Origin: Actinomycetota bacterium
GTDB taxonomy: Bacteria; Actinomycetota; UBA4738; CALAEC01
Assembly: GCA_052039025.1 (NCBI GenBank)
Contig: JBQGDK010000144.1
Span: 1,069 to 65,068, forward strand
Length of the DNA: 64,000 nt
Direction of reading: 5' to 3'
Both the position numbers and the translations under genes were made by a program. Positions within the stretch are counted from its first letter, which is position 1. Every line of letters begins with the position of its first letter. This document shows, piece after piece, positions 21,318-47,433 of the stretch. The notes beneath the pieces are model-generated. The model ran no database searches and had not been told where the DNA came from. It saw only the letters and a program-made list of their open reading frames with translations.

Positions 21318-22988
21318 TCAGCGCTCCGAGCGAGCAATCACATGGACGTCCACATTGGAGGCCCTCCGGATCAGCCGACTGACGAAGGATCCGCGTAGCA
21401 GTTCCTGCCACCGCGATCGCAGCGACTCCCCCACCACGATCTGCGTGACACCCTGCCGGTAGGCGAACGAGAGCGCTCCCTCGACCGGGTCCTCCGCCTC
21501 GACGATCTGAAACTCCCCCCCAAGCTCCTCGGCCAACCGCGTCATCCGGGCCCTCCATTCGGGGGCGGGATCCGCGTCCCCCGTGAGGATGTGCAGGACG
21601 ACCAGGTCGCCCCGAGCGCGCTGGGCCATCCTGGCCCCCCGGCGGACGAGCTGTTCGGGATCACCCGAGCCGGACACACACACGAGGATCCGCTCCCTGG
21701 TCTCCGGCGTCCTGGCCCTGGACCACCGCTTGAGAAGGTCCTCGTCCACCTTGTTCGCTACCCGCATGAGGGCGAGCTCGCGGAGGCCGGTGAGGTTCTC
21801 CGTGGTGAAGAACCTCCTCAGGGCCAGCTCCGCTTTCCGGGGGTCTGGGTAGACGTTGCCGTGGACCATGCGGCGCTGGAGGGCATACGGGGACATGTCC
21901 ACCAGCTCGACCTGATCGGCCAGGTCGAGAACCCAGTCGGGGATGGTCTCCTGCTGGCGGATGCCGGTGATCCCCGCCACCACGTCGTTGAGGCTGGCCA
22001 CGTGCTGGATGTTGAGCGTGGAGATGACCACGATCCCTTCCGCCAGGATGTCCAGGACGTCCTCCCACCGTTTGGCCCGCCGACTGCCGGGGATGTTGGT
22101 GTGGGCTAGCTCATCGACGAGGACCACTTCGGGTCGACGCCGGATGACGGCCTCGGCGTCCATCTCCTCGAAGGTCGTGCCGCGGTAGTCCAGCTTCTGG
22201 GGCGGGATGATCTCCAGCCCCTCGAGGATCTCGATGGTCTTCCGACGCCCGTAGGTCTGAACGATGCCCACCACGACGTCGGTGCCCCGGGAGAGGCGGC
22301 GCTGGCCCTCGCCGAGCATGGCGTATGTCTTCCCCACGCCGGGGGCCATTCCCAGGTAGACCCGGAGCGCCCCCCGCTTCCTGGCCTGAGCCTGCGCCTT
22401 GGTCCAAACGGTCTGGAGGACGGGCTGGGGGATGTCCCGGCCGGCCAGGGCCTCCACCGATTCAGAGCCCACCTGGGGCCCGGGGGCATCGCGCGCTGTC
22501 TCCCTGGTCTCGATGGCCACCTGCTGTTGCCGTTCGCGGCCGGCGACAGCCCTGGAACCGTTTCCCTCAACCGCGCGGGGAGCACGGTCCGCCCTCGATG
22601 ACGACCTTCCCGATCCTGGCCCCCCGCGCTCCCGGGAGGCCGTTCGCTGCGGGCTCTGGGCAGGGACCACGCCGAGGGCCCGCTCCAGCCGTCGTCGCTC
22701 TCGTCCCGACGCCACAATGGCCACCTCGTCTTCGTCCTGAAGGTGATTGATCGCGCTCTCCGGTCCGGCCGCCCAAATCTCATCGAGGGGTAGCTCAAGC
22801 GTGGGGGACAAGGCCAACGCCCCGTCGAGGATAGCTTTCTGCGCCGGCCCGATCTGGAGTCCGACGCTGATCAGGACCAACCCCCTCCCCCGAGCCGCCG
22901 CGTCTCGGGCGGCGACCTCAAGGTCCAGGTCTGCCGTGCGCCCGAGGACGAGCACCCGGCGCGGTCCTTGCGGACGCTCCTCGATCAC
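21318..22988 (-). CDS. kdpD: KdpD N-terminal sensor domain + universal stress protein domain (no TM/kinase part), fused into the kdp operon
   Basis: RVYLGMAPGVGKTYAML (KdpD P-loop) followed by a Usp-like domain; GTG start overlaps the kdpC stop; the ~180-aa N-terminal extension is of uncertain validity. Confidence 0.7.
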   Translation of the reverse strand: MIEERPQGPRRVLVLGRTADLDLEVAARDAAARGRGLVLISVGLQIGPAQKAILDGALALSPTLELPLDEIWAAGPESAINHLQDEDEVAIVASGRERRRLERALGVVPAQSPQRTASRERGGPGSGRSSSRADRAPRAVEGNGSRAVAGRERQQQVAIETRETARDAPGPQVGSESVEALAGRDIPQPVLQTVWTKAQAQARKRGALRVYLGMAPGVGKTYAMLGEGQRRLSRGTDVVVGIVQTYGRRKTIEILEGLEIIPPQKLDYRGTTFEEMDAEAVIRRRPEVVLVDELAHTNIPGSRRAKRWEDVLDILAEGIVVISTLNIQHVASLNDVVAGITGIRQQETIPDWVLDLADQVELVDMSPYALQRRMVHGNVYPDPRKAELALRRFFTTENLTGLRELALMRVANKVDEDLLKRWSRARTPETRERILVCVSGSGDPEQLVRRGARMAQRARGDLVVLHILTGDADPAPEWRARMTRLAEELGGEFQIVEAEDPVEGALSFAYRQGVTQIVVGESLRSRWQELLRGSFVSRLIRRASNVDVHVIARSER

Positions 22989-23562
22989 CCGTCCATCCCC
23001 CCGAGAGCCACGTTCAGCTCCAGGACGTTGACCCGCGGCTCCCCCAACAGCCCGAGGGATCTGCCCTCCGTGTGGCGTGTGATCAACGCGCGGACCTGGC
23101 CGAGTGGGAGGTCCCGGACGGCCGCGATCCGAGGAGCCTGGAACTCGGCCGCCGCCGGCGAGATGTGGGGGTCCAGCCCGCTGGCGGACGCGGTGAGGAG
23201 ATCGACGGGGATGTCCGAGGCCCTGAGGCCAGGCGTGTACGGGCCCTCCAACGCGAGGATCGCCGAGGCCCGGTGGCGGATCAGGTCAGCAAGCTCCTCC
23301 GACGTGGGACCAAGATTGGATCCGGACGAGGCCGCCGCGTCGTACTGCGCAGCCGAGGGACGCCCGTGGAACCACTCCTCCCCCTCCCACCTTTGGCCGA
23401 TCAGGGAGCTCCCCACGGGACGCCCGTCCACGCGTATGAGCGATCCGTCGGCCTTCTCGGGGAAGGCGATCTGGGCGAACATCGTCACAGCCAGCGGATA
23501 GACGACCCCGGTGAGGACGGCCAGGACCAGGACGGCGAGGAGGGCTCGGAGCTGTGTCCGGA

Positions 23563-23566
<4 letters not shown>
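22985..23566 (-). CDS. kdpC: potassium-transporting ATPase subunit C
   Basis: [28 protein letters not shown]...[15 protein letters not shown] (KdpC signature); GTG start overlapping the kdpB stop. Confidence 0.8.
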
Positions 23567-25613
<2,047 letters not shown>

Positions 25614-25614
<1 letters not shown>

Positions 25615-27284
25615 CAGGTCAGCCCCCCTCCCCCGAGTGCTTCGACGATCGGTCCTAGGGACAGGGCCGGAAGGAAGGTCAGGGCCCCGATGATGACGAT
25701 CACCCCGACCAACAGCCCCACGAACAGCGCCGTGTCGGTCCGGAGCGTCCCCGACGAGGCGGGGACCCTGCCCTGCCCGCCCAGGCTCCCGGCCAGGGCC
25801 AGCGCGGCCAGCAGGGGAACGAACCGCCCGAGGATCATGGCCACCCCCCCGGCGACCGCGTACAGCGGCTCGCCGGCAGCGAGCCCGGCGAACGCCGAGC
25901 CGTTGTTGTTGGCCTGGGAGTTGAACGCGTACAGGATCTCGCTGAACCCGTGGGGGCCGGCGTTCAGCCGGGCCCCCAGGCCGGCGGGGGTCACCACGGC
26001 CACCGCGGTGAGCCCCAGGACCAGCGGGAACGGGGCGATCAGCCCGATGATCGAGAGCTTGACCTCCCGGGCTCGGATCTTCTTGCCCAGGTACTCCGGT
26101 GTGCGCCCCACCATCAGCCCGCCGATGAACACCGCGAGGATGGCGTAGAACAGCATCCCGTACAGACCGCTCCCCACTCCGCCGAAGATGACCTCCCCCA
26201 CGGCGATGTTGAACAGCTGCACGGCCCCTCCCCCAGGGTTGTAGGAATCGTGCATCGAGTTGACGCTCCCGTTGGAGGCGGCGGTGGTCGCCACCGACCA
26301 GTACGCGGCCTCGTCCGTGCCGATCCGGACCTCCTTGCCCTCGAGGTTGGGGGCGGAGGCGGAGACGCCCGCGGCCCGCATGGCCTCGGTGGCCGCTCGC
26401 TCGCCGGGGATCGTGAGGGCCAGGCCGGCCAGGAACAGGACCAGCATGGCCGCGAACAGCGCCCATCCCTGGCGGACGCTCCCGACCATCTTCCCGAAGG
26501 TGTACGTCAGGGCTGCGGGGATCAGCAGGATGCTGAGGGCCTCCACGAAGTTGGAGATGGGCGTTGGGTTCTCGAAGGGGTGGGCGGAGTTGACGTTGAA
26601 GAAGCCGCCGCCGTTGGTCCCCAGCTGCTTGATGGCGATCTGCGAGGCGGCCGGCCCCTGGGCGATCAGCTGCTGGAAGCCCTGGATGCCCTCCACGGGC
26701 CGGTAGGCGCCGAGGTTCTGGACCACGCCCTGGGAGACCAGCAGGATCGTGACGATCCCCGAGAGCGGAAGCAGGATGTAAAGCACGGTGCGGACCAGGT
26801 CCCGCCAGAAGTTGCCGACCTTGTCGGTGTTCGTTCGGACGAAGCCTCGGATCAGGGCCACGAGGACCGCCATCCCGACCGCCGCCGAGACGAAGTTTTG
26901 CACGGTCAGGCCGAGCATCTGGGTGAGGTAGCTCATGGTCGTCTCGCCGCCGTAGGCCTGCCAGTTGGTGTTGGTGGTGAAGCTGACGGCGGTGTTGAAA
27001 GCCACGTACGGGTTCACCCCCGGAAGTCCGTGCGGGTTCAGGCCAAGGGAGCCCTGGAGGCGCATCAACAGGTACAGGAGGGCGAGCCCGGCCATGCTGA
27101 ACCACAGCACCGAGGTGGCATACCGGCGCCAGGACTGCTCCACGGTCGGCCGCACGCCGATCAGCCGGTACACGAGTGCCTCGGCCCGTCCGATGCGCTC
27201 CCGTGTGTACACGCCGTGGATGTAGGCCCCCAGAGGCGGGGTCAGGGCCACCGTGAGCACGAGCAGGAGGGTGACGCCGCCCAT
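25614..27284 (-). CDS. kdpA: potassium-transporting ATPase subunit A
   Basis: 556-aa polytopic protein with KdpA selectivity-filter-like [10 protein letters not shown] and GTNGGGFF motifs. Confidence 0.9.
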
Positions 27285-27374
27285 TCAGAACCTCTCTGGG
27301 CGGATCAGGGCGTAGGTGAGGTACACGAGCAGGGCGGCGGCGATCGCCAGCTCGATGATGTCGGCCACGCTCAT
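27285..27374 (-). CDS. kdpF: potassium-transporting ATPase subunit F (29 aa)
   Basis: [29 protein letters not shown], with the KdpF-like ending ...PERF; its stop abuts the kdpA start. Confidence 0.7.
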
Positions 27375-27439
27375 ACGCGCTCCAGCCACCGAATCAGGCC
27401 GAACAGCAGAGCCATCGCCACCGACGTCAGGACCACCAT
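27371..27439 (-). CDS. putative 22-aa hydrophobic leader peptide ORF, translationally coupled (ATGA) to kdpF
   Basis: [22 protein letters not shown]; its stop TGA overlaps the kdpF ATG; not in the ORF track (<60 aa). Confidence 0.3.
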
Positions 27440-27685
27440 GAGAACGTCGTCCACCGCGCTCCTTTCCTCTCGCCAGCGTAGGAGCGGGCCCTTAGGCTCC
27501 CGTGAGGAAGCCGGGCCTCGGCCTATGGGATTCCTTTGGGTTTGGGGGGAGGCGTTCGGACCCCCTCTGGGGCGGGCTCGGCGCTGGCACACTGGAGCTG
27601 CATGGCGCTTCTTGGGAGGCTGGGGCGAACTCCGGCCGGCGACGGCAGCCGGCCAGCACCCGCCCGGGCTCCCCTGGCCCGGCTG

Positions 27686-29146
27686 ATGGGGCGGTCCCCG
27701 TGGCGCCGGGTGGCCGGCTACGCCGTGGCTCTCCTCGGGACCGCGGGGGTGACCCTCGCCTTCCTGCCGGTGCGCGAGGAGACCACCGACGTGTCCAAGG
27801 GGTTCGCCTACCTGATCGTGGTGGTGGTCTCCGCGGCGATCGGTCGCCTCGGCCCGGGGATCCTGGCCTCGTTCCTCGGGTTCCTGACGTTCAACTTCTT
27901 CCAGCTCCCCCCGTACCACACGTTCGTCCTGGCGCGAGGGGAGCACGTCGTGGTGCTGTTCGTGTTCCTCGGCCTCTCCATCTTCATCTCCGCGCTGCTG
28001 GCCCGGGCCACCGAGCGGGCAGAGGCCGCCGAGGCGCGGGAGGAAGAGCTCCGGATCCTGCAGACGCTCAGTGCGGAGCTTGTGGCAGCGGTCCCAGGGC
28101 CGGAGACGTACGAATCGGTCCTCTCTCGACTGCTCGAGCTGTTCGGCTTCTCGGCCGGGTCGCTGTGGGTCCAAGATCCCGACACCCGGGAGCTTCGGGA
28201 GCAGGTCGCGGCGGGTGTCGAACCGGGGGAACTGGCACCCTCCCGCGACACGGACTCCGGGCCATGGCCTCCGGAGCGACTGCCGCTCTCCGTCGGGGGC
28301 CGGGTCCTGGGGTTGTTCCTGCTCCGGCGGGAGCGCCCTCCCCTGACCCCGGCAGAGAGCAGGGTCATGCGAGCGTTCTGCGACGAGTTCGCCTTGGTGC
28401 TGGAGCGCGACCGCCTCCTTCGGGTCGCAGCGGAGACCGAAGACTTCCGGCGAACCGAGGAGGTCAGGCGGTCTCTTCTCGCTGCCGTCTCCCACGACCT
28501 CCGCACCCCGCTCGCCGCGATCAAGGCCTCGGTGACAGACCTCCTGTCTCAAGATGCCAGGGGGGGTTCGGAGCGCGACGCTCTCCTGAGCATCGATATC
28601 GAAACGGACAGGCTGATCAGCATGATCACCAACCTCCTGGACATGTCGCGGATAGAGGGAGGGATCCTCAAGCCCCGCATCCAGACCGTGGATCTGTCGG
28701 AGGTGGTGTCGGCCTGCGTCGACCGTGCGGGACGCCAATGGCCCGAGCTCGATGTGGTGGTGAGGATGGGCGCGAGCGTGACGCTCGTGCGAGCCGACCC
28801 GGTCTTCCTGGATCGGGTGCTGACGAACCTGCTGGACAACGCGGCAAAGGCCGCCAGGGAGAACGACAGCAATAGGCTTGAGGTCCAGGCGGTGCCGGCC
28901 CAGGGCAGGGTGACGGTCCGTGTCATCGACCAAGGCAAGGGCGTCGCCCAGGACACCCGGGAACAGCTCTTCTATCCCTTCTACCAGGTCACCGAGCGGC
29001 ACCCGCGTCTCGGTACCGGGCTGGGCCTGGCCATCGCCAAAGGGTTCCTCTCTCTCATGGACGGGGAGATCTGGGTCGAGGACACACCGGGTGGCGGGGC
29101 GACGTTCGCCTTCTCGCTCCCGGCGAACGTTACCGTTCCCACGTGA
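27686..29146 (+). CDS. sensor histidine kinase, KdpD C-terminal type (4-TM KdpD membrane domain + GAF + HisKA + HATPase)
   Basis: TM block ...AYLIVVVVSAAIGRLGPGILASFLGFLTFNFFQLPPYHTF...; H-box AAVSHDLRTPLAAI; ATP lid GLGLAI. Start taken at ATG 27686; an upstream start at 27536 is possible. Confidence 0.8.
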   Translation: MGRSPWRRVAGYAVALLGTAGVTLAFLPVREETTDVSKGFAYLIVVVVSAAIGRLGPGILASFLGFLTFNFFQLPPYHTFVLARGEHVVVLFVFLGLSIFISALLARATERAEAAEAREEELRILQTLSAELVAAVPGPETYESVLSRLLELFGFSAGSLWVQDPDTRELREQVAAGVEPGELAPSRDTDSGPWPPERLPLSVGGRVLGLFLLRRERPPLTPAESRVMRAFCDEFALVLERDRLLRVAAETEDFRRTEEVRRSLLAAVSHDLRTPLAAIKASVTDLLSQDARGGSERDALLSIDIETDRLISMITNLLDMSRIEGGILKPRIQTVDLSEVVSACVDRAGRQWPELDVVVRMGASVTLVRADPVFLDRVLTNLLDNAAKAARENDSNRLEVQAVPAQGRVTVRVIDQGKGVAQDTREQLFYPFYQVTERHPRLGTGLGLAIAKGFLSLMDGEIWVEDTPGGGATFAFSLPANVTVPT

Positions 29147-29856
29147 TGAAGAAGGCTCGCGTGCTCGTCGTGGACGACGAGCAGCAGATCCGAAGGGCGG
29201 TTGGGCGTGCCCTCACGACCCGCGGGTACGAAGTGCTGGAAGCACGCGACGGAGAGGAGGCCCTGTCCGTGACGGCGGCCTCCGAACCCGATCTGGTCAT
29301 CCTTGACCTGAACCTGCCGGAGCGTGACGGGCTCTCCGTGTGCCAGCAGCTCAGGCGACGGAGTTCGGCACCGATCCTCATCCTCTCCGTGCGGGAGGAG
29401 GAGTCCGACAAGGTGGCCGCTCTTGACCTCGGGGCCGACGACTACCTGACCAAGCCCTTCGGGATCGAGGAGCTAATGGCCCGGGTACGGGCGCTCCTCA
29501 GGCGGGCGGAGACCCAGGGCGGGCCGAGGCCGGTGCGCTTCAAGAGGGACGACGTGGAGATCGACGTCGACACCCGCCGCGTGACCCGGAAGGGGGAGGA
29601 GGTCCGGCTGACCAAGACCGAGTGGGGGCTGCTCGAAGCCCTGTCGGAATACCCGGGAAAGCTGCTCACCCACCGGTGGTTGCTGGAGCGCGTATGGGGG
29701 CCGGGCTACTCGGAGGATCTCGACGTGCTCCGAGTCTTCATCAGCCAGCTACGGCGGAAGATCGAATCGGATCCGGGACGGCCGCAGATCATCGCCACCG
29801 ACCCGGGGATCGGTTACCGGTGGCTGCTGCGGCCAGCCGAAGAGCCGGACGAGTAG
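29143..29856 (+). CDS. kdpE: OmpR-family response regulator KdpE
   Basis: MMKKARVLVVDDEQQIRRAV...DLVILDLNLP receiver domain plus winged-helix C-terminus; ATGA overlap with the kinase gene. Confidence 0.85.
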   Translation: MMKKARVLVVDDEQQIRRAVGRALTTRGYEVLEARDGEEALSVTAASEPDLVILDLNLPERDGLSVCQQLRRRSSAPILILSVREEESDKVAALDLGADDYLTKPFGIEELMARVRALLRRAETQGGPRPVRFKRDDVEIDVDTRRVTRKGEEVRLTKTEWGLLEALSEYPGKLLTHRWLLERVWGPGYSEDLDVLRVFISQLRRKIESDPGRPQIIATDPGIGYRWLLRPAEEPDE

Positions 29857-34807: not shown

Positions 34808-37768
<2,961 letters not shown>

Positions 37769-37865: not shown

Positions 37866-37882
37866 ATACCCCTGTAGGGTAT
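37866..37882. promoter_or_regulatory. candidate CsoR operator: perfect inverted repeat ATACCC-CTGTA-GGGTAT in the copA/csoR divergent intergenic region
   Basis: atacccctgtagggtat lies between the copA start (37768, minus) and the csoR start (37920, plus); this matches the GC-rich pseudo-palindromes bound by CsoR family repressors. Confidence 0.5.
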
Positions 37883-37919: not shown

Positions 37920-38228
37920 GTGAAGGAGGTACGAGGGGTGGCGCAACAGGCGAGGGGCTATTCGGCCACCAAGGACCAGCTCCTGGCTCGGCTCGGCAGG
38001 ATCGAGGGGCAGGTCCGGGGCGTGGCGAACATGGTCCGGGAGGACCGGTACTGCATCGACGTCGTGACCCAGATCAACGCGATCCGGGCGGCCATCGACA
38101 AGGTGGCACTCGGACTCGTGGACGATCACGTCCGTCATTGTCTGGTCGGGGGCCACGGCGGTCCCACCGACCCCAACGAGCAGGCTGCCGAGCTGATGGG
38201 TGCCGTGGGCCGGATGCTGTCGAGATAG
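37920..38228 (+). CDS. csoR: CsoR/RcnR family metal-sensing transcriptional repressor
   Basis: DUF156 fold with Cys/His/Cys ligands (RYCIDV...HVRHCLVGG). Confidence 0.8.
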
Positions 38229-38231
38229 GGT

Positions 38232-38534
38232 GTGCGCATGAGCGCGTTGGCGCGGCGAGCGCCGATCCTGCTCCTCGCCGTGTGCGTGCTGTTCGTGGCC
38301 CTCGCCCTGGTGCTGCACCAGGTCGGGATGGACCGCCACGAAGGCATGGGCATGCTCGGCGCGTGTCTCGCCCTACTGGCCACGGCGCTTGTGGTCCTTC
38401 TGCCGGAGGCGAGCCGGCTTCGCGTGCAGCCGCCCATCGATCGGTCCCACCTCCCCCGTCCGGCATCCGTCCTCCTGGGGAGGCCGCGGAGCAGACCACC
38501 CCCGGAGGATGAGGGGACCGTCGTTCTCTGCTAA
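38232..38534 (+). CDS. small 2-TM membrane protein, paralog of 34007..34288
   Basis: See 34007..34288; immediately follows csoR. Confidence 0.4.
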   Translation: MRMSALARRAPILLLAVCVLFVALALVLHQVGMDRHEGMGMLGACLALLATALVVLLPEASRLRVQPPIDRSHLPRPASVLLGRPRSRPPPEDEGTVVLC

Positions 38535-38585: not shown

Positions 38586-39005
38586 ATGCGCGCGTACCAG
38601 AAGCTCTCGGTCGCACTGTCGCTTCTTGCCCTCGGCGGCCTGCTGGCCGCCTGCGGCGGCGATGAGGGGATCCAGATCGAGGCCCTCGACAAACTGGCGT
38701 GGGATCCCGAGTCGGTGACGGTGCGGTCCGGGGAACCGGTCACGTTCGTGGTGACGAACGACGGCGAACTCGATCACGAGTTCATCCTGGGACCAGGGCA
38801 CGTCCAGGACGCCCACGAGATGGCGGCCATGGAGGGCATGGAGCACGGCGAGGCCGGAGAGGAGGCTCTCGCGGTCCTCGAGCTCGCGCCCGGGGAGACC
38901 AAGGAAGTGACGGTCACCTTCGAGGAACCGGGCGAGGTCCTCTATGGGTGTCATGAGCCCGGCCACTACGACGGCGGGATGGTCGGAACCGTGACCGTCG
39001 AGTAG
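38586..39005 (+). CDS. cupredoxin-like copper-binding lipoprotein
   Basis: Lipoprotein signal LLALGGLLAAC; type-1 Cu ligand pattern HEF...YGCHEPGHYDGGM (His, Cys, His, Met). Confidence 0.7.
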   Translation: MRAYQKLSVALSLLALGGLLAACGGDEGIQIEALDKLAWDPESVTVRSGEPVTFVVTNDGELDHEFILGPGHVQDAHEMAAMEGMEHGEAGEEALAVLELAPGETKEVTVTFEEPGEVLYGCHEPGHYDGGMVGTVTVE

Positions 39006-39239
39006 AACGGCGGCAGGGAATCGACGCCCCCGATTACGACTGGGCGTTGACCGCGGCCGGCGGTCGCGGGGGGTGGGCTTCCCCCACGGGAGGCCCACCA
39101 GCGCTCGTGGTGATGCCCGAGCTTTCATCCGGCCAAGGTTCCGGGGCGCGGTTCCCTCAGGGGTGATCAGCATAGTTGGAGATGAGAACACCCCGGACTC
39201 GATCACGGAGTCCTCTTCCCCCGCCGTTTGGCGAGCGGC

Positions 39240-39839
39240 TCAGGGGACGCGCCCGATCATCCGGTCGAGCTCGTACGCGTGCCACTCGAGGGCCCGGACG
39301 TATCCGGAGTCCGCCGACCGCTGAAGCATGCTGTCACCCTCCATGATCGCGTTCATCTGCGGTCCCACGTCCACCGACATCCGCTGGGTCATCACCCGAT
39401 CCTGCTCCAGCACGTCGTGCGAGATCGAACCAGGGACGGCCGGCCGGGGCGAGGGAAGCGCCACCGCTACCGCGAGCACGACGCCCAGTCCGATCACCGC
39501 CACCACCACCAGTCGGGAGAACCAGCTCATGACGTCACCTCCCTTCCTGGGACCGCCGATCGGGGCCGCCTGGCCCGACCGGACCCGCCGCCCCCGCGAG
39601 GCCCGCTCGGCGGCCACCACGGCGCCCACGCAGATCCCCAGGCAGGCCAGCAGGAGGAGTCCGGCGGCGACCCGGGCGACCTCCGGGGACCACCCGGCAG
39701 CCGCGGTCGCTGCCGCAACCGCAGCGGCGAGCCCGATCAGCGCCCACATCGCCCCGTGGGGCCGCCAGGAGGACCCCTGGGGGAGGCCCGCTGGCCACGG
39801 GGGCTCCGTGCGCGGCTTCGGTCCGTCCATCGCGCTCAC
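39240..39839 (-). CDS. hypothetical membrane/secreted protein(s); possibly two ORFs (39530..39839 and 39240..39530)
   Basis: First part has TM helices (MWALIGLAAAVAAATAAAGW...LLLLACLGICVGAVVAA); an internal M at 39530 begins MSWFSRLVVVAVIGLGVVLAVAVAL...; no recognisable domains. Confidence 0.3.
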   Translation of the reverse strand: MSAMDGPKPRTEPPWPAGLPQGSSWRPHGAMWALIGLAAAVAAATAAAGWSPEVARVAAGLLLLACLGICVGAVVAAERASRGRRVRSGQAAPIGGPRKGGDVMSWFSRLVVVAVIGLGVVLAVAVALPSPRPAVPGSISHDVLEQDRVMTQRMSVDVGPQMNAIMEGDSMLQRSADSGYVRALEWHAYELDRMIGRVP

Positions 39840-39941
39840 ACGCTAGGCCTCGGCGGTGAAGAACCGATGAACCGACCATGGATTGTCCGTGCGAACACCG
39901 CGAGGTCGCCACGGCCCGTCGCGTGGAAGCTCAGGGCTCGG

Positions 39942-42416
39942 TCAGCCCATCGGCTGGAGTGATCGCCCTTCGAGCCCCATGGGGGGACCGCCCTCTCCCT
40001 CGGCCTCCGGCAACCGGAGCCGCTTGAGGAGCAGGGCGTTCACAGCCACGAGCAGGCTGGACCCGGACATCGACAGCGCGGCGATCTCCGGCCGCAGCAC
40101 CAGGCCCAGGCTCGGCTCGAACACCCCCGCGGCGATCGGCAGGGCCACCCCGTTGTAGCCGATGGCCCACCCCAGGTTCTGTCGCATCTTCCGGAGGGTG
40201 CCGCGCCCGATGGCCAGCGCCTTGGGGATATCCAGGGGATCTGAGCGCATCAGCACCACGTCGGCGGTCTCGATGGCCACGTCGGTCCCCGCCCCGATGG
40301 CCACCCCCAGGTCCGCCTGAGCCAGCGAAGGAGCGTCGTTCACCCCGTCGCCCACCATGGCGACGTTCCGGCCTTGCCGCTGCAGCTCGGCCACCTTGCC
40401 GGCCTTGTCGCCCGGGAGGACCTCGGCGATGACCTCCTCGATCCCCAGGATCCCGGCGATCCGCCTGGCGGTGGCCTCATTGTCCCCGGTCAGCATGACC
40501 ATCTCGACCCCCGCGTCCCTCAGGGCCGCCACCGCGGCTCGGGACGTGGGGCGGGGGGCGTCGGCGATCCCGATCAGGGCCACGGCCCGCCCGTCGGCAG
40601 CCACCCACACCGCGGTCCGGCCGCCGGCGGCCAGGTCCGCCCGCCGTGCCTCCAGGGAACCGAGGCTAACCCCCTCCCTGGCCATGAGCCGGGTGTTCCC
40701 TACCGCGATGAGCCGGCCCTCCACCTCGGCCAGGGCCCCGTGGCCGGGAACGTTCTCGAACCCCTGGGCCCGAACGGCCGGGACACCCTGGGCCTCGGCG
40801 TGACGGACCAGGGCCTCGGCCAGGGGGTGCTCGGACTCCCGCTCCACCGCTGCCGCCAGCCGGAGGACCTCGGGCTGGGGGAGGCCATCGGTCACCACCT
40901 CGGTGACCTCGGGCTCCCCCTTCGTGAGCGTCCCGGTCTTGTCCATGACCACGGTGTCGATCCGAGCAGCCGACTCCAGGGCGATGGCGTTCTTGAACAG
41001 GATCCCCCGGGTGGCTCCCAGACCCGTGCCCACCATGATCGCCGTGGGAGTGGCCAGGCCCAGCGCGTCGGGGCAGGTGATGACCACCACGGTGATGGCG
41101 AACAGGATGGCCTCGGGGGCCGGCCGGCCCACCAGCAGCCAGGTCAGCAGCGTCCCCCCTCCGCCGATCAGAGCCACGAAGACCAACCAGAAGGCGGCCC
41201 GGTCCGCGAGCTTCTGCCCGGGAGCCTTGGAGTTCTGGGCCTCCTGGACCAGCTTCACGATCTGGGCCAGCGCCGTCTCCGAACCCACCTTGGTGGCCCG
41301 GGCCCGGAGCGTCCCGTTCGTGTTGATGGTGGCCCCGATGACCTCCGATCCCGGCTCCTTGTGCACCGGGAGGCTCTCCCCGGTGACCATGGACTCATCG
41401 ACCTCGCTCTCTCCTTCCTCCACGGTCCCGTCGACGGGGACCTTGGAGCCCGGCCGAATCAGCAGAAGGTCCCCCGCCTCCACCTCAGCGGTGGGGACCT
41501 CCACCGGCTCCCCGCCTCGGAGGACCACGGCCATCGGAGGAGCCAGGTCCAGGAGCTTCCGGATGGCGTCGTTGGCCCCGCCCCGGGCCCGCATCTCGAA
41601 CCAGTGGCCCAGCAGGACGAAGGCGGCCAGCACCGTGGCAGCCTCGTAGAACACCTCCCCGCCCCCGGTCAGCGTCACGACGACCGAGTAGACCCACCCC
41701 GACCCGATGGCCACGGCCACCAGGACCATCATGTCCAGGGTGCGGACGCGGAGAGCCCGCCACGCCCCGTCGAAGAAGATCCAGGAGGAGTAGAAGATCA
41801 CCGGGAGGCTGAGGAGGAGAGCGAACACGTCGTCGCGGAGCCCGAAGGGCGCCGGCACCTCGAACCCCAGGACCTCGCGGCCGATCGGCGACCACAGGAG
41901 GATGGGCACCGACAGGATCGCCGCCACCAGGAACCGGTTCCGCATGTCCCGGACCATGGCGTCCATCGACATGCCCGCGTGGCCGCCGTGGCCCATGACC
42001 TCCTCCGGGGCGCGCAGTCCCTCCTCCGGCGGGGCGTGCACGGCGTGCCCGGCGGGAGGCGCCTCCCCCGGTAGGGCCGGGTGAGCGGTTGGAGCGGGGT
42101 CCGGCTCCTCCATCGGATCGCAGATGTGGGTCGGGACCGACTGCCCGGCGCAGTGCATCCCGCACTCCTCCACCCACCGCCGCAGCTCCGCCAGAGAGGT
42201 GACCGACGTGTCGTAGGTGACGTTGGCGGTCTGGGCCACCGGGTTTGCCTCCACTTCCACCACCCCGGACCGCCGGCCGAGCGCGCTCTCGACTACGGCC
42301 TTCTCACTGGCCCGGTAGATCCCGCCGACGTGGAGGACAGCCGTGGCGGTCTTCCCCAGCCGGTGGTCCGCATGACGAGGCGGTTCGCCGCGGCTCGGCT
42401 CCCGGTCAGCGTTCAA
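39942..42416 (-). CDS. heavy-metal P1B-type ATPase with atypical CPD (not CPC) TM6 motif and Cys-less HMA-like N-terminus
   Basis: DKTGTLT, GDGVNDAP, ITCPDALGLATPTAIMVG; N-terminal LHVGGIYRASEKAVVESAL (HMA fold without CxxC); His-rich linker HAVHAPPEEGLRAPEEVMGHGGHAGMSMDAM. Confidence 0.8.
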   Translation of the reverse strand: MNADREPSRGEPPRHADHRLGKTATAVLHVGGIYRASEKAVVESALGRRSGVVEVEANPVAQTANVTYDTSVTSLAELRRWVEECGMHCAGQSVPTHICDPMEEPDPAPTAHPALPGEAPPAGHAVHAPPEEGLRAPEEVMGHGGHAGMSMDAMVRDMRNRFLVAAILSVPILLWSPIGREVLGFEVPAPFGLRDDVFALLLSLPVIFYSSWIFFDGAWRALRVRTLDMMVLVAVAIGSGWVYSVVVTLTGGGEVFYEAATVLAAFVLLGHWFEMRARGGANDAIRKLLDLAPPMAVVLRGGEPVEVPTAEVEAGDLLLIRPGSKVPVDGTVEEGESEVDESMVTGESLPVHKEPGSEVIGATINTNGTLRARATKVGSETALAQIVKLVQEAQNSKAPGQKLADRAAFWLVFVALIGGGGTLLTWLLVGRPAPEAILFAITVVVITCPDALGLATPTAIMVGTGLGATRGILFKNAIALESAARIDTVVMDKTGTLTKGEPEVTEVVTDGLPQPEVLRLAAAVERESEHPLAEALVRHAEAQGVPAVRAQGFENVPGHGALAEVEGRLIAVGNTRLMAREGVSLGSLEARRADLAAGGRTAVWVAADGRAVALIGIADAPRPTSRAAVAALRDAGVEMVMLTGDNEATARRIAGILGIEEVIAEVLPGDKAGKVAELQRQGRNVAMVGDGVNDAPSLAQADLGVAIGAGTDVAIETADVVLMRSDPLDIPKALAIGRGTLRKMRQNLGWAIGYNGVALPIAAGVFEPSLGLVLRPEIAALSMSGSSLLVAVNALLLKRLRLPEAEGEGGPPMGLEGRSLQPMG

Positions 42417-42493
42417 CGACTAGGACCTCCCATCCCGTCCTTCGTCCCGCTCTCCACATAGGGCGCTCCACACATCCGTTGCCGCCGGACTTC

Positions 42494-43530
42494 TCACACC
42501 AGGTCGGCTCGAACGCCCAGGCTCTGGTCGGTCACCGCCATCGACATCGCCCCATCCGGCTCCGCCTCAGTCATCGCTCTGACTGCATCGACGTTCTCCG
42601 GGATCACGATCGCCTCGTTGTGCACCTGATAGGTGAGGAAGATCTCCCGGCCCGCCACCGCCAGGGAGTCCTCCCACACGGCCACCTCCCACAGGTCGGC
42701 TCGAGGCCGGCCGAGGTCCCGGGTGATCTCGATCACCGAGTTCGGGGCCTCGATCCCGCGGTCGGCCCGGACGAACACGATCCGAGGGGCAGCCCGCAGG
42801 GCGGAGCGCACCTCCTCTTCGTCCGTCTCCCGAGGGGCCTCCACCCAGGCGAAATGGACGTGGGACAGGTTGAACGGCCCCGCGGCAGCCATGGTCACCA
42901 CGTCCAGGTCAGGGATCACGGTCTGCGCGTCCGGCCCCTGGTGGGAGGGGACCTTCCGCTCGGGCAGGAGTGTGTTGATCATGCCGCCCTCGTGGGACTC
43001 CCACGGGTCGGTCCCGCGGCGGACCAGCACCGCCCGGGCCCTGCCCACGAGGTCCTGGTCGCGAAGGGCGCTGAGGACCCGGATCAGCCCCGTCGTGTTG
43101 CAGGAGACCACGCGGACGAAGTCTTCGCCACGGGCCTCGTCGTAGTTGGCTTGGGCGACGAAGGAGATCCCGGCCAGCGCATGCGTCTCGCCTCCCTGGA
43201 AGATCGCCTTGACCCCCGCGGACTCGTAGGCCGGTTTGTTTGCCGCGCCAACCTCCTTGGGGGTGGCATCCACCACCACGTCCACGCCTCCCAGGAGCTC
43301 CTCCAGACTCCCCGCCGGTGCCAGGCCCGCCTCCCGCAGCGCCGTGGTGGCCTCCGGTGTGGATCCGAAGAGCGGGTAGCCGCGCTCAGCCACGAGGGCC
43401 ACTCGGTAGTCCGTGGCCACGTCGGCCACCCCCACGAGTTCCATGTCCGGCTGGAGCGTGACGGCGTCGGCCACCCGCTTGCCGATGACGCCGTACCCAT
43501 TCACTCCGATCTTGATCGGTGCCATCTCCA
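42494..43530 (-). CDS. type II (archaeal-type) glyceraldehyde-3-phosphate dehydrogenase
   Basis: MEMAPIKIGVNGYGVIGKRVADAV...SCNTTGL (catalytic Cys in archaeal-type context); ATG 43530 after gggagaggagag; 345 aa. Confidence 0.7.
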
Positions 43531-43583
43531 TCTCTCCTCTCCCGGATGCCGACCTCCGGCATTCCTCCTCGACGCCCCTTCGC

Positions 43584-44348
43584 TCATCCCTGCGGGAACG
43601 CCGGCCCGAGGAGCTCCCCGGCGTCGCTGACGACCACGTCCGCGCCTCGGGCCAGAAGCTCCTCGGCGCGGCCGACGCGGTCGACGCCAACCACCAGCTT
43701 GAACCCACCGCGGCGCCCGGCCTCCACTCCCGCCAGCGCATCTTCCACCACGGCGGTGTCAGAGGGATCCACACCGAGTCGGCGGGCCGCCTCCAGGAAG
43801 ATGGCCGGGTTCGGCTTGCCCTTCAGGCCCAGCCGCTCGGATTCCACCCCGTCCACCCGGACATCGAACAGGTCGGAGATGGCGGCGGCCTCCAGCACCT
43901 CAGTCATGTGGCGGCTGGCTGAGATGATCGCCACGCCGACCCCGGTCGCACGGAGGGACCGCACCAGCTCGACGGTCCCCGTGTGGACCCGCACCCCCTC
44001 CTCCCTGATGCGCGCCAGGAAGTACCGATCCTTGCGATTCCCGAGACCTCGCACGGTCTCCTGGTCCGGCGGGTCCCCGAGATCCCCTTCTGGCAAGACG
44101 ATCCCCCTGGAGCGGAGGAAGTCCCGCACCCCGTCATACCGAGGCTTTCCATCCACGTACCTTCGGTAGTCGTTGTCGATGTCGAACGATCCGAGGTTCT
44201 TCCCGGTCCACTCGCCCCGCTGTTCCAGGTACGAGTCGAAGAGGCGCTTCCATGCCGAAGCGTGGACCGACGCGGTGTCGGTGACCACACCGTCCATGTC
44301 GAAGATGACGGCCTTCAGGTCGTCGACGGCCCCGATGTTCCGGCTCAT
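43584..44348 (-). CDS. beta-phosphoglucomutase family HAD hydrolase
   Basis: VIFDMDGVVTDT (DxDG), ...GKPNP...; paired with the GH65 phosphorylase. Confidence 0.75.
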   Translation of the reverse strand: MSRNIGAVDDLKAVIFDMDGVVTDTASVHASAWKRLFDSYLEQRGEWTGKNLGSFDIDNDYRRYVDGKPRYDGVRDFLRSRGIVLPEGDLGDPPDQETVRGLGNRKDRYFLARIREEGVRVHTGTVELVRSLRATGVGVAIISASRHMTEVLEAAAISDLFDVRVDGVESERLGLKGKPNPAIFLEAARRLGVDPSDTAVVEDALAGVEAGRRGGFKLVVGVDRVGRAEELLARGADVVVSDAGELLGPAFPQG

Positions 44349-44974
44349 GTGCCCTCCCCCGCAGCGGGGGCGCCATCCACGAGGATCAGGACAGGACAGG
44401 GGGCTCCCGGAGCAGCCGACCTGATGAGGGCAGCCCGGCCCGGGCCCGCTTCTCCCCTCCAGGTCATGATGATCAGGTCCGCGGGGAGACGCCGGGCCGC
44501 CTCCAGGATCGACTCCAGGGGCGCCCCGGTGGCCACCTCCAGGTCAAGGTCGACCCCCTCGGAGCACCGGCAGAACCGTCGGAGGAACTCTGCCCGCCAC
44601 TCTGCCCAGTCGTACCCGTGGTCGACGATCCTGGGGGCCGGCAAGCTGCCCTTCTCCGGCGGCGCATACAGAGCCGTCACGTGCAGCACCGTGATGGCGG
44701 CCCCGGTGGCCGCGGCCACTCCGTCGGCCACCCGCATGCCTCCGGCGACCCGGGGACTTCCCTCGTGGGGGACGAGGATCCGCCGGATCACACCGGGCAC
44801 GCGAACGCGAGCCGGGACGAACAGGACCGAGCGACCTTTCTTCGCTGTCCCCAGAGCGGCGTCGATGTCTTCACCCTCCAGGAGGGCCTCTCGGTCGATC
44901 TCCCATCCGGCGGACGCGACCACGCCTCGCACCCTCTTGGCCGCCGTCCCCGGGACCACGGCGATCGGCCTCAC
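44345..44974 (-). CDS. universal stress protein family protein
   Basis: IRRILVPHEGSP...VLILVDGAP-type UspA fold; GTG 44974 overlaps the GH65 stop (GTGA); the N-terminal extent is uncertain. Confidence 0.55.
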   Translation of the reverse strand: MRPIAVVPGTAAKRVRGVVASAGWEIDREALLEGEDIDAALGTAKKGRSVLFVPARVRVPGVIRRILVPHEGSPRVAGGMRVADGVAAATGAAITVLHVTALYAPPEKGSLPAPRIVDHGYDWAEWRAEFLRRFCRCSEGVDLDLEVATGAPLESILEAARRLPADLIIMTWRGEAGPGRAALIRSAAPGAPCPVLILVDGAPAAGEGT

Positions 44975-47433
44975 GAGGGCCGGACCTCCTCGAGACTCGA
45001 CCAGCCACGACGGGCCTTCCTGGCCAGGTGGCGACCGATGTTCAGCCGCCGGGGAGCGTTGGCGCCTATGGCCACGGGCGTGGGCCGGTCCACGGTCACG
45101 GTGACGGTTCGTGCCTCGACGTCCACACGGACTCGGCTCCCCCTCCAGCGGAGCGGGAAGGCGAGACGGGTCCAGGTCCGCGGCGGACGTGGGTCGATCC
45201 GCAGCGCGTCGCCGTCGGCACGGAGACCGCCGAAGCCCAGCACCGCCGCCTGCCACAGCCCGCCCATCGCGGCCATGTGGATCCCATGGGCCGCGTTGCC
45301 CATCCGGTTCCCTAGGTCGATGGCCGCTGCCATCTCGAAGTATCGGAGAGCGTCCGCGGGTCGGCCCACCCTGGCGGCCACGGCCGCGTGGATCGCCGGA
45401 GAGAGCGAGCTCCCATGCGACGTCCTGGGCTCGTAGTATCGGTAGTTGGCCCGGACCGCGCCGGCGGGTACCACCTCGGGCACCATGTGCAGCACCATGG
45501 CCACGTCGGCCTGCTTGACGACCTGGGAACGCCCAAGCCGGTCCCGCCCCATGACGAGCTCGGCGACGAAGGGGCGGGGGCCGAGGTCGGCCGCCCTGAC
45601 GTCCTCCAGATCGAAGAACCCGGCGAACTGCTCGTAGAGCCCGGTCCCCGGATCGAACCCGTCGACCAGGCCACCCGCTACCGTGCGCCATCGCCGGAGC
45701 TCCGAGTCCTCCAGGGCCATGCGCCGTCGAAGGGCGCGCCAGGACCGCCGGTCGAGCACCGGTAGCACCTCGGCAACCTCGAGAGCTCGCTCAAGGTTCC
45801 ACCGGGCCATGATGTTCGTGAATGCGTTGTCCCGAACCCCCTGGTGGTACTCGTCGGGCCCCATCACCCGAGCGATGTGGTGGCGGCCATCCCGGCCCCG
45901 ACGAGCCCGGGAGGCCCAGAACCTCGCCGTCTCGAGGACGATCTCCGCCCCGATGTCGGCTAGGAACGCCTCGTCTCCGGTGGCTTCCCAGTGCCGCCAG
46001 GAGGCCCACGCCACGTCGGCCGAGATGTGGTGCTCCTGCTGACTGGTGAGGATGGGGATCCGGGTCCCGTCCGGCCCTACCTCGTGGCCCGGGGTGGTCT
46101 CCTCGCCGGTATCGGCACACTCCCAGGCGAAGAGCGCCCCCCGGTAGCCGAAAGCTGCGGCCCTGGCCCGGGCCGCTGGGAGCGTCCGGTGCCGGTGGGC
46201 CAGCAGCGTCCGGGCGGTCTCGGGGTGCGTATAGGTGAAGAAGGGCACCATGAACACCTCCGTGTCCCAGAAGAGGTGGCCTCGATATCCATCACCGGTG
46301 AGGCCCCGGGCCCCGATCGAGGCCAGGTCGGACTCCGGGTCTCCCGCCGACATGAGGTGGTAGAGGGCGAAGCGGAGCGCCCGCTGGGCCTCGGGATCTC
46401 CATCCACGACGACGTCCGAGTCACGCCACCGCTCCCGCCAGGCCGCCGTGTGCCGGGCTCGGACCCGCGGCAGGCCATCTCGCTCGGCCCACTCGAGGGC
46501 GTCGACGGCGTCGCGCCCCACGGGATCGCCCCCTCGGCTCACCGCGGCGATACGACGGAGCCTCCCGTCCCGCTCCAGGGTGGAGATCGCAAAGGAGGCC
46601 CTCCTTCCGCCCCGGGCTTGGAACGACATCACCAAGCGCCCCCCTTCCCGTCCGGCTTTCACGGACTCCACCGGCCCGAGATCCGGCGGTGGGACTCCGT
46701 CGCCGAGGCGAACCGCGGGACCGGCCGAGCGAGCTTCTGCCTCCAGAGCCAGGACCTCCCGATCGGCCATCGAGGCGAACCGGGCGGAGCGGAAGCCAAC
46801 CTCGACCCCCGACGGGAGGCGATGGCGCCAGATCCGGAAGAGGATCGCCTGTTGCAGGTCCAGGATCCGGCGGTGCTCCAGGAGTTCTCCGCGGTCGAGA
46901 TCGATCGCCTCCGCTCCGGCGCGGGGGGCCAATCGCGTCCACCGCGGTCCCGTGACCAGCTCGGGGCCCGGGGGGTCCCCACCATCGGGCCATCCGTACA
47001 GCGCCGCGACGTACGTGGCCGCAGATGACTCCTCGCTCTCCTCCTCGAGAGAGCCACGGGTCCCCGACCTCCCGTTCGCCACCGTGAACCATGACTCCAT
47101 CTCTCGCTCGCGCAGTGGGTCGAACCCTTCGATCTCGATGCGCCACAGAGGATCGTCGACGAGAGCCGCGAACGCCTCCTGTCGCTCATCCACGTCCCCG
47201 GTGGCCCCCTCGATCGTGGCGATCCGTACCGGCGATCCGGTCCGGCACAACCGTACGTCGTCGTGGGGAGAGCCGCCCTCCGGACGACAGGCCGCGCCTT
47301 CCCCCGGTCGGGTCAATCGTGGTCCGAGGGAGCCGCTCGACGGTTCCCCGACAGTCACGGCCCGGCCGGCCGCGGCTGATCCAGGCCTCAAACGCAACCG
47401 CCACGGAAGCAGCCCGGCAACCCCACCGGCCAC
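44971..47433 (-). CDS. glycoside hydrolase family 65 disaccharide phosphorylase (maltose/trehalose/kojibiose phosphorylase-like)
   Basis: GH65 central catalytic domain motifs (GYRGHLFWDTEVFMVPFF, HISADVAWA); the true start is uncertain (the track start at 47433 is GTG). Confidence 0.8.
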   Translation of the reverse strand: MAGGVAGLLPWRLRLRPGSAAAGRAVTVGEPSSGSLGPRLTRPGEGAACRPEGGSPHDDVRLCRTGSPVRIATIEGATGDVDERQEAFAALVDDPLWRIEIEGFDPLREREMESWFTVANGRSGTRGSLEEESEESSAATYVAALYGWPDGGDPPGPELVTGPRWTRLAPRAGAEAIDLDRGELLEHRRILDLQQAILFRIWRHRLPSGVEVGFRSARFASMADREVLALEAEARSAGPAVRLGDGVPPPDLGPVESVKAGREGGRLVMSFQARGGRRASFAISTLERDGRLRRIAAVSRGGDPVGRDAVDALEWAERDGLPRVRARHTAAWRERWRDSDVVVDGDPEAQRALRFALYHLMSAGDPESDLASIGARGLTGDGYRGHLFWDTEVFMVPFFTYTHPETARTLLAHRHRTLPAARARAAAFGYRGALFAWECADTGEETTPGHEVGPDGTRIPILTSQQEHHISADVAWASWRHWEATGDEAFLADIGAEIVLETARFWASRARRGRDGRHHIARVMGPDEYHQGVRDNAFTNIMARWNLERALEVAEVLPVLDRRSWRALRRRMALEDSELRRWRTVAGGLVDGFDPGTGLYEQFAGFFDLEDVRAADLGPRPFVAELVMGRDRLGRSQVVKQADVAMVLHMVPEVVPAGAVRANYRYYEPRTSHGSSLSPAIHAAVAARVGRPADALRYFEMAAAIDLGNRMGNAAHGIHMAAMGGLWQAAVLGFGGLRADGDALRIDPRPPRTWTRLAFPLRWRGSRVRVDVEARTVTVTVDRPTPVAIGANAPRRLNIGRHLARKARRGWSSLEEVRPS

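Follow-up and report, generated by a model that had tools for sequence, protein, structure and literature searches.

An intact CPD-motif P1B ATPase of the CopB lineage, probably a copper exporter, is common in Actinomycetota and on actinobacterial plasmids

We analysed a 64,000-nucleotide (nt) stretch of contig JBQGDK010000144.1 from an Actinomycetota bacterium (assembly GCA_052039025.1), hereafter the window, and find that it encodes an intact P1B-type ATPase in which the transport-site motif of the fourth transmembrane helix (TM4 or M4) reads Cys-Pro-Asp (CPD) instead of Cys-Pro-Cys (CPC). Tree position and shared residues place this CPD pump in the CopB (P1B-3) lineage, and it is probably an active copper exporter driven by ATP. 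Directly established are an intact gene, conserved motifs, the place in the lineage and a copper-type genomic context, with CsoR boxes in some genomes. The third residue of the CPx motif sits in the P1B ion-binding site, and whether CPC and CPH (Cys-Pro-His) distinguish Cu(I) from Cu(II) transport has been disputed for two decades. The CPD motif itself is not the first of its kind, having already been reported in 2017, and the clade that carries it provides a natural experiment on the third CPx position, with Asp there and every other Cu(I) ligand kept. The pump is common cargo of Rhodococcus, Mycolicibacterium, Nocardia and Streptomyces plasmids and of metal-resistance islands, so its substrate matters for soil and clinical metal-resistance genotypes.

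A copper-type P1B ATPase with aspartate in the transport site

Three P-type ATPases are encoded in the window, the CPD pump, a CPC-type CopA (34808–37768) and KdpB, in agreement with a sequence-only reading of the same DNA that had recognized a second P1B ATPase here. The gene and its catalytic and transport motifs are listed below by position in the window and amino acid (aa) number; signature counts here and throughout were taken over 207 full-length members of the CPD family.

39942–42416, minus strand: gene for the CPD-type P1B ATPase, a single 824-aa open reading frame (ORF) with a TTG start and a GC content at third codon positions of 0.92
42426–42431, minus strand: ribosome-binding site GGGAGG, 9 nt 5′ of the TTG start, read from the sequence
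40929–40943, minus strand: phosphorylation motif DKTGT, aa 492–496, in 207/207 family members
40329–40352, minus strand: hinge motif GDGVNDAP, aa 689–696, in 207/207 family members
41067–41075, minus strand: TM4 motif C448-P449-D450 (TGC CCC GAC), aligned with LpCopA C382-P383-C384
40137–40178, minus strand: TM5 motif N747-x5-G-Y754-N755-x4-P760, aligned with LpCopA Y688/N689, in 205/207 members
40038–40070, minus strand: TM6 motif M783-S-G-S786-S787-x5-N793, aligned with LpCopA M717/S720/S721, in 205/207 members

Pfam assigns an HMA domain (aa 29–86, E 6e-9), an E1-E2_ATPase domain and a Hydrolase (HAD) domain, and the further P1B motifs TGES (345–348, actuator loop) and SEHP (528–531, N-domain) are intact. 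The NCBIfam models for copper-translocating P-type ATPases (TIGR01511; 585 bits, cutoff 397) and heavy-metal P-type ATPases (TIGR01525; 602 bits, cutoff 346) both recognize the protein, which falls far below the cutoffs of the ZntA and CadA equivalogs (ZntA model NF033775, 300 bits versus 1240; PRK11033, 341 versus 1005) and so does not fit the Zn/Cd/Pb-type (P1B-2) profile. Its top solved relative is LpCopA (3rfu, E 7.7e-159); matches to LpCopA and AfCopA structures range from E 1e-155 to 1e-159, with ZntA (4umv, 2e-72) and CadA far behind. The AlphaFold2 (AF2) model contains the complete eight-helix P1B layout (MA, MB and M1–M6; predicted helices 151–183, 195–223, 229–249, 253–291, 399–428, 433–463, 729–766 and 776–799), with only moderate confidence in the membrane part, and breaks M4 at 447/449, at C448-P449-D450. 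Judged from its sequence, the CPD pump is an intact class P1B heavy-metal P-type ATPase.

The replacement of CPC by CPD that the sequence-only reading had noticed is real: the segment reads ITCPDALGLATP, with C448-P449-D450 at 41075–41067 and GAC as the Asp codon. Residue-by-residue alignment with LpCopA identifies the substitution of C384 by D450 as the sole change along the copper pathway. The entry residues M148, E205 and D337, the exit residue E189, and C382, Y688, N689, M717 and S720/S721 are all retained, and the P1B-1-type patterns of M5 (Nx6YNx4P) and M6 (Mx2SSx5[N/S]) are satisfied by NLGWAIGYNGVALP and MSGSSLLVAVN. In AfCopA, C382 forms a transient trigonal Cu(I) entry site together with C380 and M158, and mutating C382 abolishes Cu(I) binding (PMC9433437). 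Because C384 alone is changed and the equivalent AfCopA Cys is an entry ligand, alignment indicates that the CPD family has a carboxylate in place of one sulfur of the Cu(I) entry site, the rest of which is copper-type.

Aspartate is conserved across a large actinobacterial clade

CPD is present in 120/120 of the nearest database homologs, which are 74–83% identical and mostly from Actinomycetota metagenome bins. The sequence-only reading had reasoned that homologs with CPC would expose the motif as a sequencing error, and this pattern is not seen. A scan of one genome per species found relatives of the CPD pump in at least 554 species genomes. The best 80 of these are 68–79% identical to the query and come from Streptomyces, Nonomuraea, Mycobacterium, Mycolicibacterium, Nocardioides, Microbacterium and Cellulomonas; a few are Chloroflexi or Dormibacter bins. 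Plasmid copies at 60–80% identity occur in 43 actinobacterial plasmid records, including Nocardia farcinica pNF1, many Rhodococcus and Mycolicibacterium plasmids, Streptomyces linear plasmids, and plasmids of Cryobacterium and Pseudarthrobacter. By this distribution and its place in the tree described below, the CPD clade is a large branch of the CopB lineage, found mostly in actinobacteria and often on plasmids. Copies 72–77% identical to the query were also found in bins labelled Chloroflexi, Candidatus Dormibacter and Candidatus Micrarchaeaceae archaeon (L006, L052 and L056), which points to horizontal transfer or mis-binned contigs.

Across the family the Asp is encoded by GAC in 68 cases and by GAT in 17, and the use of both codons shows that Asp itself is under selection. 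Taken with 68–83% identity across orders, codon usage indicates that the family is under strong purifying selection. The M2 signature GHWxEM is found in 204/207 members. A decaying or non-transporting paralog, with CPD as a loss of function or a sequencing error, would fit the inactivation of AfCopA by mutation of the equivalent Cys (PMC9433437). However, the presence of CPD in all 120 nearest homologs and in at least 554 species genomes, the level of identity, the catalytic motifs found in 207/207 members and the use of both Asp codons make such a paralog extremely improbable. These counts rule out a sequencing error or pseudogene, and on grounds of conservation a dead paralog is essentially excluded.

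The CPD pump belongs to the CopB lineage

When 1.84 billion representatives of 50%-identity clusters were searched exhaustively, the tight CPD clade yielded one full-length representative (P0121, 70% identical to the query), followed by P0123 (54%; CPD, MSLSS), P0128 (52%; CPH) and P0125 (49%; CPD, MSAST), and below these a large body of CPC pumps at 40–49% identity. A neighbour-joining tree of 127 full-length sequences (624 columns, 100 bootstraps) unites CPD and CPH pumps in one clade against all 111 CPC pumps with 99% bootstrap support, and both the tight CPD clade and the CPH group are supported at 100%. Monophyly of all CPD proteins is unsupported (1%), and P0125 falls elsewhere in the CopB group. 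Since CPD occurs in the distant P0123 and P0125 with other N termini and M6 motifs, there may have been repeated switches between His and Asp, or CPH may derive from an ancestral CPD. P0123 has a CLEC-type (CxxC) HMA domain and many HAAMGHDM His/Met repeats, and P0125 has a Cys-free HMA-like domain. Hidden Markov models of CPH and CPC pumps were of unequal depth, so that their raw scores are not comparable and only the relative shift agrees with the tree.

Individual positions tell the same lineage. L411, A415, G419, A758 and A791 are invariant in the family, are common to CPH pumps and differ from 84–98% of CPC pumps, which have F/V/A/V at such positions (F in 98% at that of L411). Only D450, N395, T309, R652 and G785 are specific to the CPD family. 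A change from His (CAY) to Asp (GAY) takes one base, and one from Cys to Asp takes two. Because positions are shared with CopB and the step from His to Asp is a single base, the CPD pump is a member of the CopB lineage in which Asp has taken the position of His. P1B-3 pumps are today counted among the Cu(I) transporters and grouped with P1B-1 (PMC10654040).

The closest described proteins point the same way. In a purely bioinformatic study, Cubillas et al. 2017 defined CPD/MSGSS proteins as a new subtype (group VIc) inside the CopB group, distinguished by a "novel CPD motif", MSGSS, few N-terminal His and extra length, and independently grouped them with CPH CopBs including A. fulgidus CopB (PMC5552934). 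The query shows every one of these features, combining CPD with YN(x)4P and MSGSS, few N-terminal His and a length above that of CPH CopBs. Group VIc comprises plasmid proteins of Xanthobacter autotrophicus Py2 (Xaut_4847), Nitrobacter hamburgensis X14 and Bradyrhizobium sp. BTAi1 that are 52–55% identical to the query and resemble it in CPD, YN(x)4P, MSGSS, a CxxC-less HMA-like N terminus, a length of about 810–820 aa and plasmid carriage. They also carry the query's CG[FY]HCxGxxxPxHxC and MGHG..M.M..MVRDMRNRF. Whereas group VIc is a proteobacterial sister group, the query sits in a much larger and tighter actinobacterial clade (68–83% identity); the 2017 analysis comprised three proteobacterial sequences and did not cover this clade or the Cys/His cluster, both of which are without description in the literature searched.

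Comparison with the classical subgroups shows how far the CPD pump departs from each. With CopB (P1B-3) of A. fulgidus and E. hirae it shares M3, M5 and M6 substitutions, GHWxEM in M2, Nx5GYNx4P, a His/Met segment before MA and typical pairing with CopA. It differs in having Asp where CopB has the TM4 His, so that the motif is CPD and not CPH, and MSGSS in place of MSxST; its His-rich stretch is short and variable, and against CPH representatives it has gained an HMA-like domain and a Cys3His2 cluster and is ~80–130 aa longer. The P1B-3 motifs reportedly defined by Arguello in 2003 are Nx5GYNx4P in M5 and PxMSxSTx5N in M6. The query matches the first exactly and reads LSMSGSSx5N for the second, with MSxSS instead of MSxST and no Pro. 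Compared with the His-rich, HMA-free P1B-3 N terminus, it has MGHGGHAGMSM before MA but also an HMA-like domain. CopA structures (P1B-1; LpCopA 3rfu, AfCopA 3j09 and 7r0g) are its best PDB matches, and it shares the Mxx-SS-x5-N of M6 with them; it differs in having Asp for the second Cys of CPC, no CxxC in its HMA domain and a place outside the CPC group in the tree. With the P1B-2 pumps ZntA and CadA, in which an acidic residue takes part in metal binding, it has the general P1B fold in common, but the similarity is much weaker and its M5 and M6 are copper-type.

The sequence-only reading had been unable to assign the protein to a described P1B subgroup. CPC and CPH definitions do both fail, yet an assignment is possible, to the CopB lineage and, within it, to the CPD subtype of Cubillas et al. 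2017. That reading had also allowed that the clade might prove to be a characterised one; it was described in 2017 (PMC5552934), though it is not experimentally characterised in the literature searched. A phylogeny against characterised pumps had been called for, and the tree provides the 99% split of CPD and CPH from CPC with no characterised CopB in it. Anchoring with characterised plasmid CopB/TcrB gave uncharacterised cyanobacterial and haloarchaeal genes as the best plasmid matches to the CPH representative, and the CopB anchor of the placement is that of Cubillas et al. 2017 (PMC5552934).

A conserved N-terminal module with a Cys/His cluster

The region before the membrane core consists of four segments.

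42165–42350, minus strand: HMA-like ferredoxin fold without CxxC, aa 23–84, with R35 and E38 at the CxxC positions (Pfam, AF2, Foldseek)
42117–42164, minus strand: conserved Cys/His cluster CGMHCAGQSVPTHICD, aa 85–100, a candidate metal site directly after the HMA core
41997–42116, minus strand: variable Pro/Glu/His-rich linker, aa 101–140, with an AF2 predicted local distance difference test score (pLDDT) <50
41931–41996, minus strand: conserved His/Met motif MGHGGHAGMSMDAMVRDMRNRF, aa 141–162, running into helix MA, in 193–196/207 members

AF2 models the HMA-like core (aa 23–84) as a beta-alpha-beta-beta-alpha fold with pLDDT 87–96, and Foldseek matches it best to an ATP7B metal-binding domain (6a71; template modelling (TM) score 0.81, root-mean-square deviation 1.3 Å), with CopZ and MerP domains also matching at TM scores of about 0.8. 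Pfam and structure prediction thereby uphold the HMA-like fold lacking CxxC that the sequence-only reading had described. Of the P1B-1 hallmark, an HMA domain bearing GMxCxxC, the protein has the fold but R35 and E38 at the Cys positions, and CxxC is absent upstream of the Cys/His cluster in 196/199 family members.

The same reading had called this N terminus Cys-free, which is incorrect: C85, C89 and C99, accompanied by H88 and H97, directly follow the HMA core, and the Cys are invariant. C85, C89, G91, S93, P95, C99 and D100 do not vary among the homologs, and G86, H88, Q92, V94 and H97 are at least 90% conserved. The pattern CGxHCxGxxxPxHxC occurs in 195/207 family members, the proteobacterial sister group included. 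AF2 assigns low confidence to the segment, both alone and in the full-length protein, and predicts it to be disordered without metal. Its conserved Cys3His2 composition suggests that the cluster binds metal.

A His/Met-rich stretch following the HMA fold had likewise been noted, and HAVHAPPEEGLRAPEEVMGHGGHAGMSMD is indeed present at aa 124–152, but only its last third is conserved (MGHGGHAGMSMDxMVRDMRNRF). Between the Cys/His cluster and MGHG, the linker varies from 16 to 95 aa and from 0 to 15 His (median 5) across the family. MGH[GS] is found in 196/207 members, and G142, H143, G144, G145, S150, M154, D157, M158, R159, R161 and F162 are invariant. A related H/M...RF stretch before MA was found in CPH representatives. 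A search for the N-terminal module as a stand-alone protein, possibly a dedicated chaperone, returned only unconvincing matches of 90–160 aa, mostly on tiny contigs or with frameshift-like tails.

Copper genes and CsoR boxes accompany the CPD family

In the window, a copper gene cluster adjoins the CPD pump on one side.

34808–37768, minus strand: neighbouring CPC CopA, with a transmembrane anchor, cupredoxin domain, HMA domain (CPAC), CPC/YN/MALSS core and C-terminal YHS domain
37867–37881, plus strand: CsoR-type operator palindrome TACCCCTGTAGGGTA in the copA–csoR intergenic region, the sole match in the window (0.06 expected by chance)
37920–38228, plus strand: CsoR-family Cu(I)-sensing repressor gene, divergent from copA (Pfam Trns_repr_metal, E 1.2e-26)
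38586–39005, plus strand: plastocyanin/azurin-like cupredoxin gene (Pfam Copper-bind, E 1e-10)
39240–39839, minus strand: 199-aa membrane ORF with a Met-rich C-terminal part, downstream of the CPD pump, with no Pfam match

A 100-aa hydrophobic ORF between csoR and the plastocyanin-like gene (38232–38534, plus strand) has no Pfam match.

We compared the neighbours within 8 kb at 87 family loci. A copper-type neighbour is present in 63 of them (CsoR in 28, DUF305 in 31, SHOCT in 28 and multicopper oxidase (MCO) in 17), and CsoR, an MCO or a cupredoxin in 45. DUF305 includes CopM, a copper-binding resistance protein established by experiment (PMC4335983). A canonical Cu-type CPC CopA lies within four genes of the CPD pump in 22 loci, and one relative 80% identical to the query is divergent from csoR-copZ-copA. 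Matches to the CsoR operator pattern TACCC-N3-7-GGGTA occur at most ~130 nt upstream of the family gene in L017, L027 (two), L050, L059, L069 (two) and L077, and somewhere in 32/79 loci, against ~0.02 expected per locus.

This context bears on whether Asp has instead retuned the same scaffold for Cu(II) or a different divalent ion (for example Zn, Cd, Pb, Co, Ni or Fe), so that the pump would complement the neighbouring Cu(I) CopA. Asp450 is invariant and the sole changed ligand, and carboxylates favour harder or divalent ions, as established coordination chemistry has it. The typical pairing with a canonical CopA suggests non-redundancy, a few loci (cluster 19 among them) have ArsR/SmtB-type regulators beside the pump gene, and MarR and mer genes are found in the vicinity of a close relative; the JGI/KEGG-style name 'Cu2+-exporting ATPase' agrees as an automatic label, not a test. 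However, the pump retains YN and MxxSS ligands of the Cu(I) type as well as the entry Met, Zn-type determinants are unmatched (as the ZntA model score shows), the visible regulation is by the Cu(I) sensor CsoR, and Cu(I) is now the accepted substrate of the CPH pumps formerly assigned to Cu(II) (PMC10654040). A changed substrate is on balance unlikely. The sequence-only reading had favoured a specificity different from that of the nearby Cu(I) pump; the two do differ in a transport-site ligand and in the N-terminal metal region, but Asp is the single feature that argues for a different substrate. Apart from the Cys-free N terminus its observations were largely correct and its interpretation is partly supported, with the evidence favouring copper over a new metal.

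Some of the same neighbours would suit a pump that, like CopA2, FixI or CtpA, provides a low flux of copper to secreted or membrane cuproproteins (cupredoxin, MCO) rather than detoxification. The plastocyanin-like gene is 1 kb away in the window, MCO genes occur in 17/87 loci and the pump coexists with canonical CopA. Against this, plasmid islands of the resistance type carry the gene together with DUF305, SHOCT, MspA and additional pumps, its CsoR-controlled layouts are typical of detoxification, and the clade groups with CopB, not with CopA2/FixI. We regard cuproprotein supply as quite improbable.

A third possibility draws on non-metal neighbours. A set comprising phosphoketolase, HAD and GH65 (fused or separate), MFS, PPK2 and Usp genes, which resembles actinobacterial dormancy or stress islands, is represented by at least one gene in 22/87 loci, on actinobacterial and proteobacterial plasmids and in two phyla; it recurs, for instance, at L010, L038, L045, L046, L079, L082 and L084–L086. 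In the window the CPD gene follows GH65, Usp, HAD and GAPDH-like genes on the same strand. Phosphoketolase is directly downstream of the CPD pump in L010, L038, L046 and L082 and close by in four more loci, and MFS genes adjoin it in Xanthobacter, Nitrobacter and M. gilvum. Other members of the set are a glycosidase, DUF6629 and a general stress protein. The pump might accordingly serve ion homeostasis under general stress or dormancy, with copper genes as incidental co-cargo. Yet only a quarter of loci have such genes, 18 of these 22 have copper genes as well, and the pump's own ligands are copper-type, so that a stress-island role seems very improbable.

Several observations weigh against a CopB-type copper exporter and temper our preference for it. 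Asp is a hard ligand and would be unusual for Cu(I), and mutation of the equivalent AfCopA Cys, as noted, abolishes Cu(I) binding. The tree is distance-based, and its CPH sequences are database representatives, not characterised CopBs. The literature searched yielded no assayed member and no functional study of the CPD family. C. glutamicum CopB (cg3281; copper-induced, in the CopRS regulon) is at most a possible studied member, as the paper on it states no motif. Pattern search detected no CsoR-type operator upstream of the CPD gene in the window, where the gene ends a tightly packed same-strand array of the non-metal genes GH65, Usp, HAD and GAPDH-like (42494–47433, minus strand). Elsewhere, 24/87 loci have no copper-type neighbour within 8 kb, and some have ArsR/SmtB-type or MarR/mer neighbours rather than copper genes.

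A proposed mechanism for the CPD pump

As a copper exporter, the CPD pump would follow the standard P-type cycle, in which D492 of DKTGT is phosphorylated and the TGES loop mediates dephosphorylation. Metal would enter from the cytoplasm at the MB′/M1 platform, at M229 with E274 and D405, would be bound between M4, M5 and M6 by C448, Y754/N755 and M783/S786-S787, and would exit past E258. Asp450, standing for the second Cys of CopA or the His of CopB, would create a Cys/Met/carboxylate site, in which, alongside C448 and M783, it could coordinate the metal or be a protonatable relay. The N terminus, composed of the CxxC-less HMA fold, the Cys3His2 cluster and the MGHGGHAGMSM motif beside helix MA, may be a family-specific regulatory or metal-receiving module in which the cluster and the His/Met motif bind metal and regulate or feed the entry site. 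In this scheme, which metal is moved, in which direction, and what Asp450 and the Cys/His cluster do are our inferences. In its genomic setting the CPD pump would be mobile cargo of metal-resistance islands and, with a canonical CPC CopA as its usual partner, the other half of a CopA/CopB-type pair; in the window that partner would be the cupredoxin-YHS CopA at a distance of 2 kb.

More speculatively, the invariant Asp may be adaptive, either moving Cu(II) or another divalent metal or coupling Cu(I) release to protonation of the carboxylate, and the Cys3His2 cluster may be an undescribed metal-sensing gate. We consider the two together doubtful; if both held, the family would be a functionally distinct P1B subgroup widespread on actinobacterial plasmids. 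Should the protein be merely another Cu(I) exporter, it would be an ordinary pump that nonetheless extends the accepted set of ligands.

The neighbouring CopA and other genes of the window

The neighbouring CopA is unusual in its domain architecture, which is nevertheless conserved. The arrangement (about 990 aa; Cupredoxin_1) is found in at least 120 homologs at 63–83% identity, mostly from Actinomycetota bins; Pfam lists all four domains for most of them, the HMA call being missing in a few. CPC is present in 119/120 homologs, and the JGI label is 'Cu+-exporting ATPase'. The Asp of the GDGxNDxP hinge binds Mg and is conserved across P-type ATPases. In this CopA the hinge reads GVG instead of GDG, with Val797 (GTC) for Asp (GAC) at 35378–35380 on the minus strand. 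Because 117/120 homologs have GDG and GVG occurs in this sequence alone, the substitution is a one-base change private to this CopA, due either to a mutation in this genome that inactivates the pump or to a fault in the assembly. A genuine mutation could leave the CPD pump as the only working copper exporter of the cluster.

Promoter and terminator scans of 38900–43000 found nothing, and in the loci compared neither the flanking 199-aa ORF nor the GAPDH-like and 100-aa ORFs adjoin other CPD family members. Two gene models upstream of the CPD pump overlap their neighbours. A listed 448-aa ORF (44345–45691, minus strand) has a Usp domain only in its last 140 residues and overlaps the GH65 gene (44971–47433) by 720 nt; the real Usp gene is probably much shorter and starts after 44971. 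The GAPDH-like ORF (42494–43774) overlaps the HAD gene by 190 nt, and its start therefore probably lies downstream of the listed one.

The third P-type ATPase of the window, KdpB, lies in a Kdp region at 21318–29856. On the minus strand this region encodes a protein with a KdpD sensor domain and Usp (21318–22988), and it includes KdpB (DKTGT at 24670–24684) and KdpA (25614–27284). The opposite strand encodes a DUF4118-HisKA-HATPase kinase (27536–29146) and a response regulator (29143–29856). As the sensor-domain protein with Usp and the kinase are separate genes, KdpD appears to be split into a sensor protein and a kinase protein.

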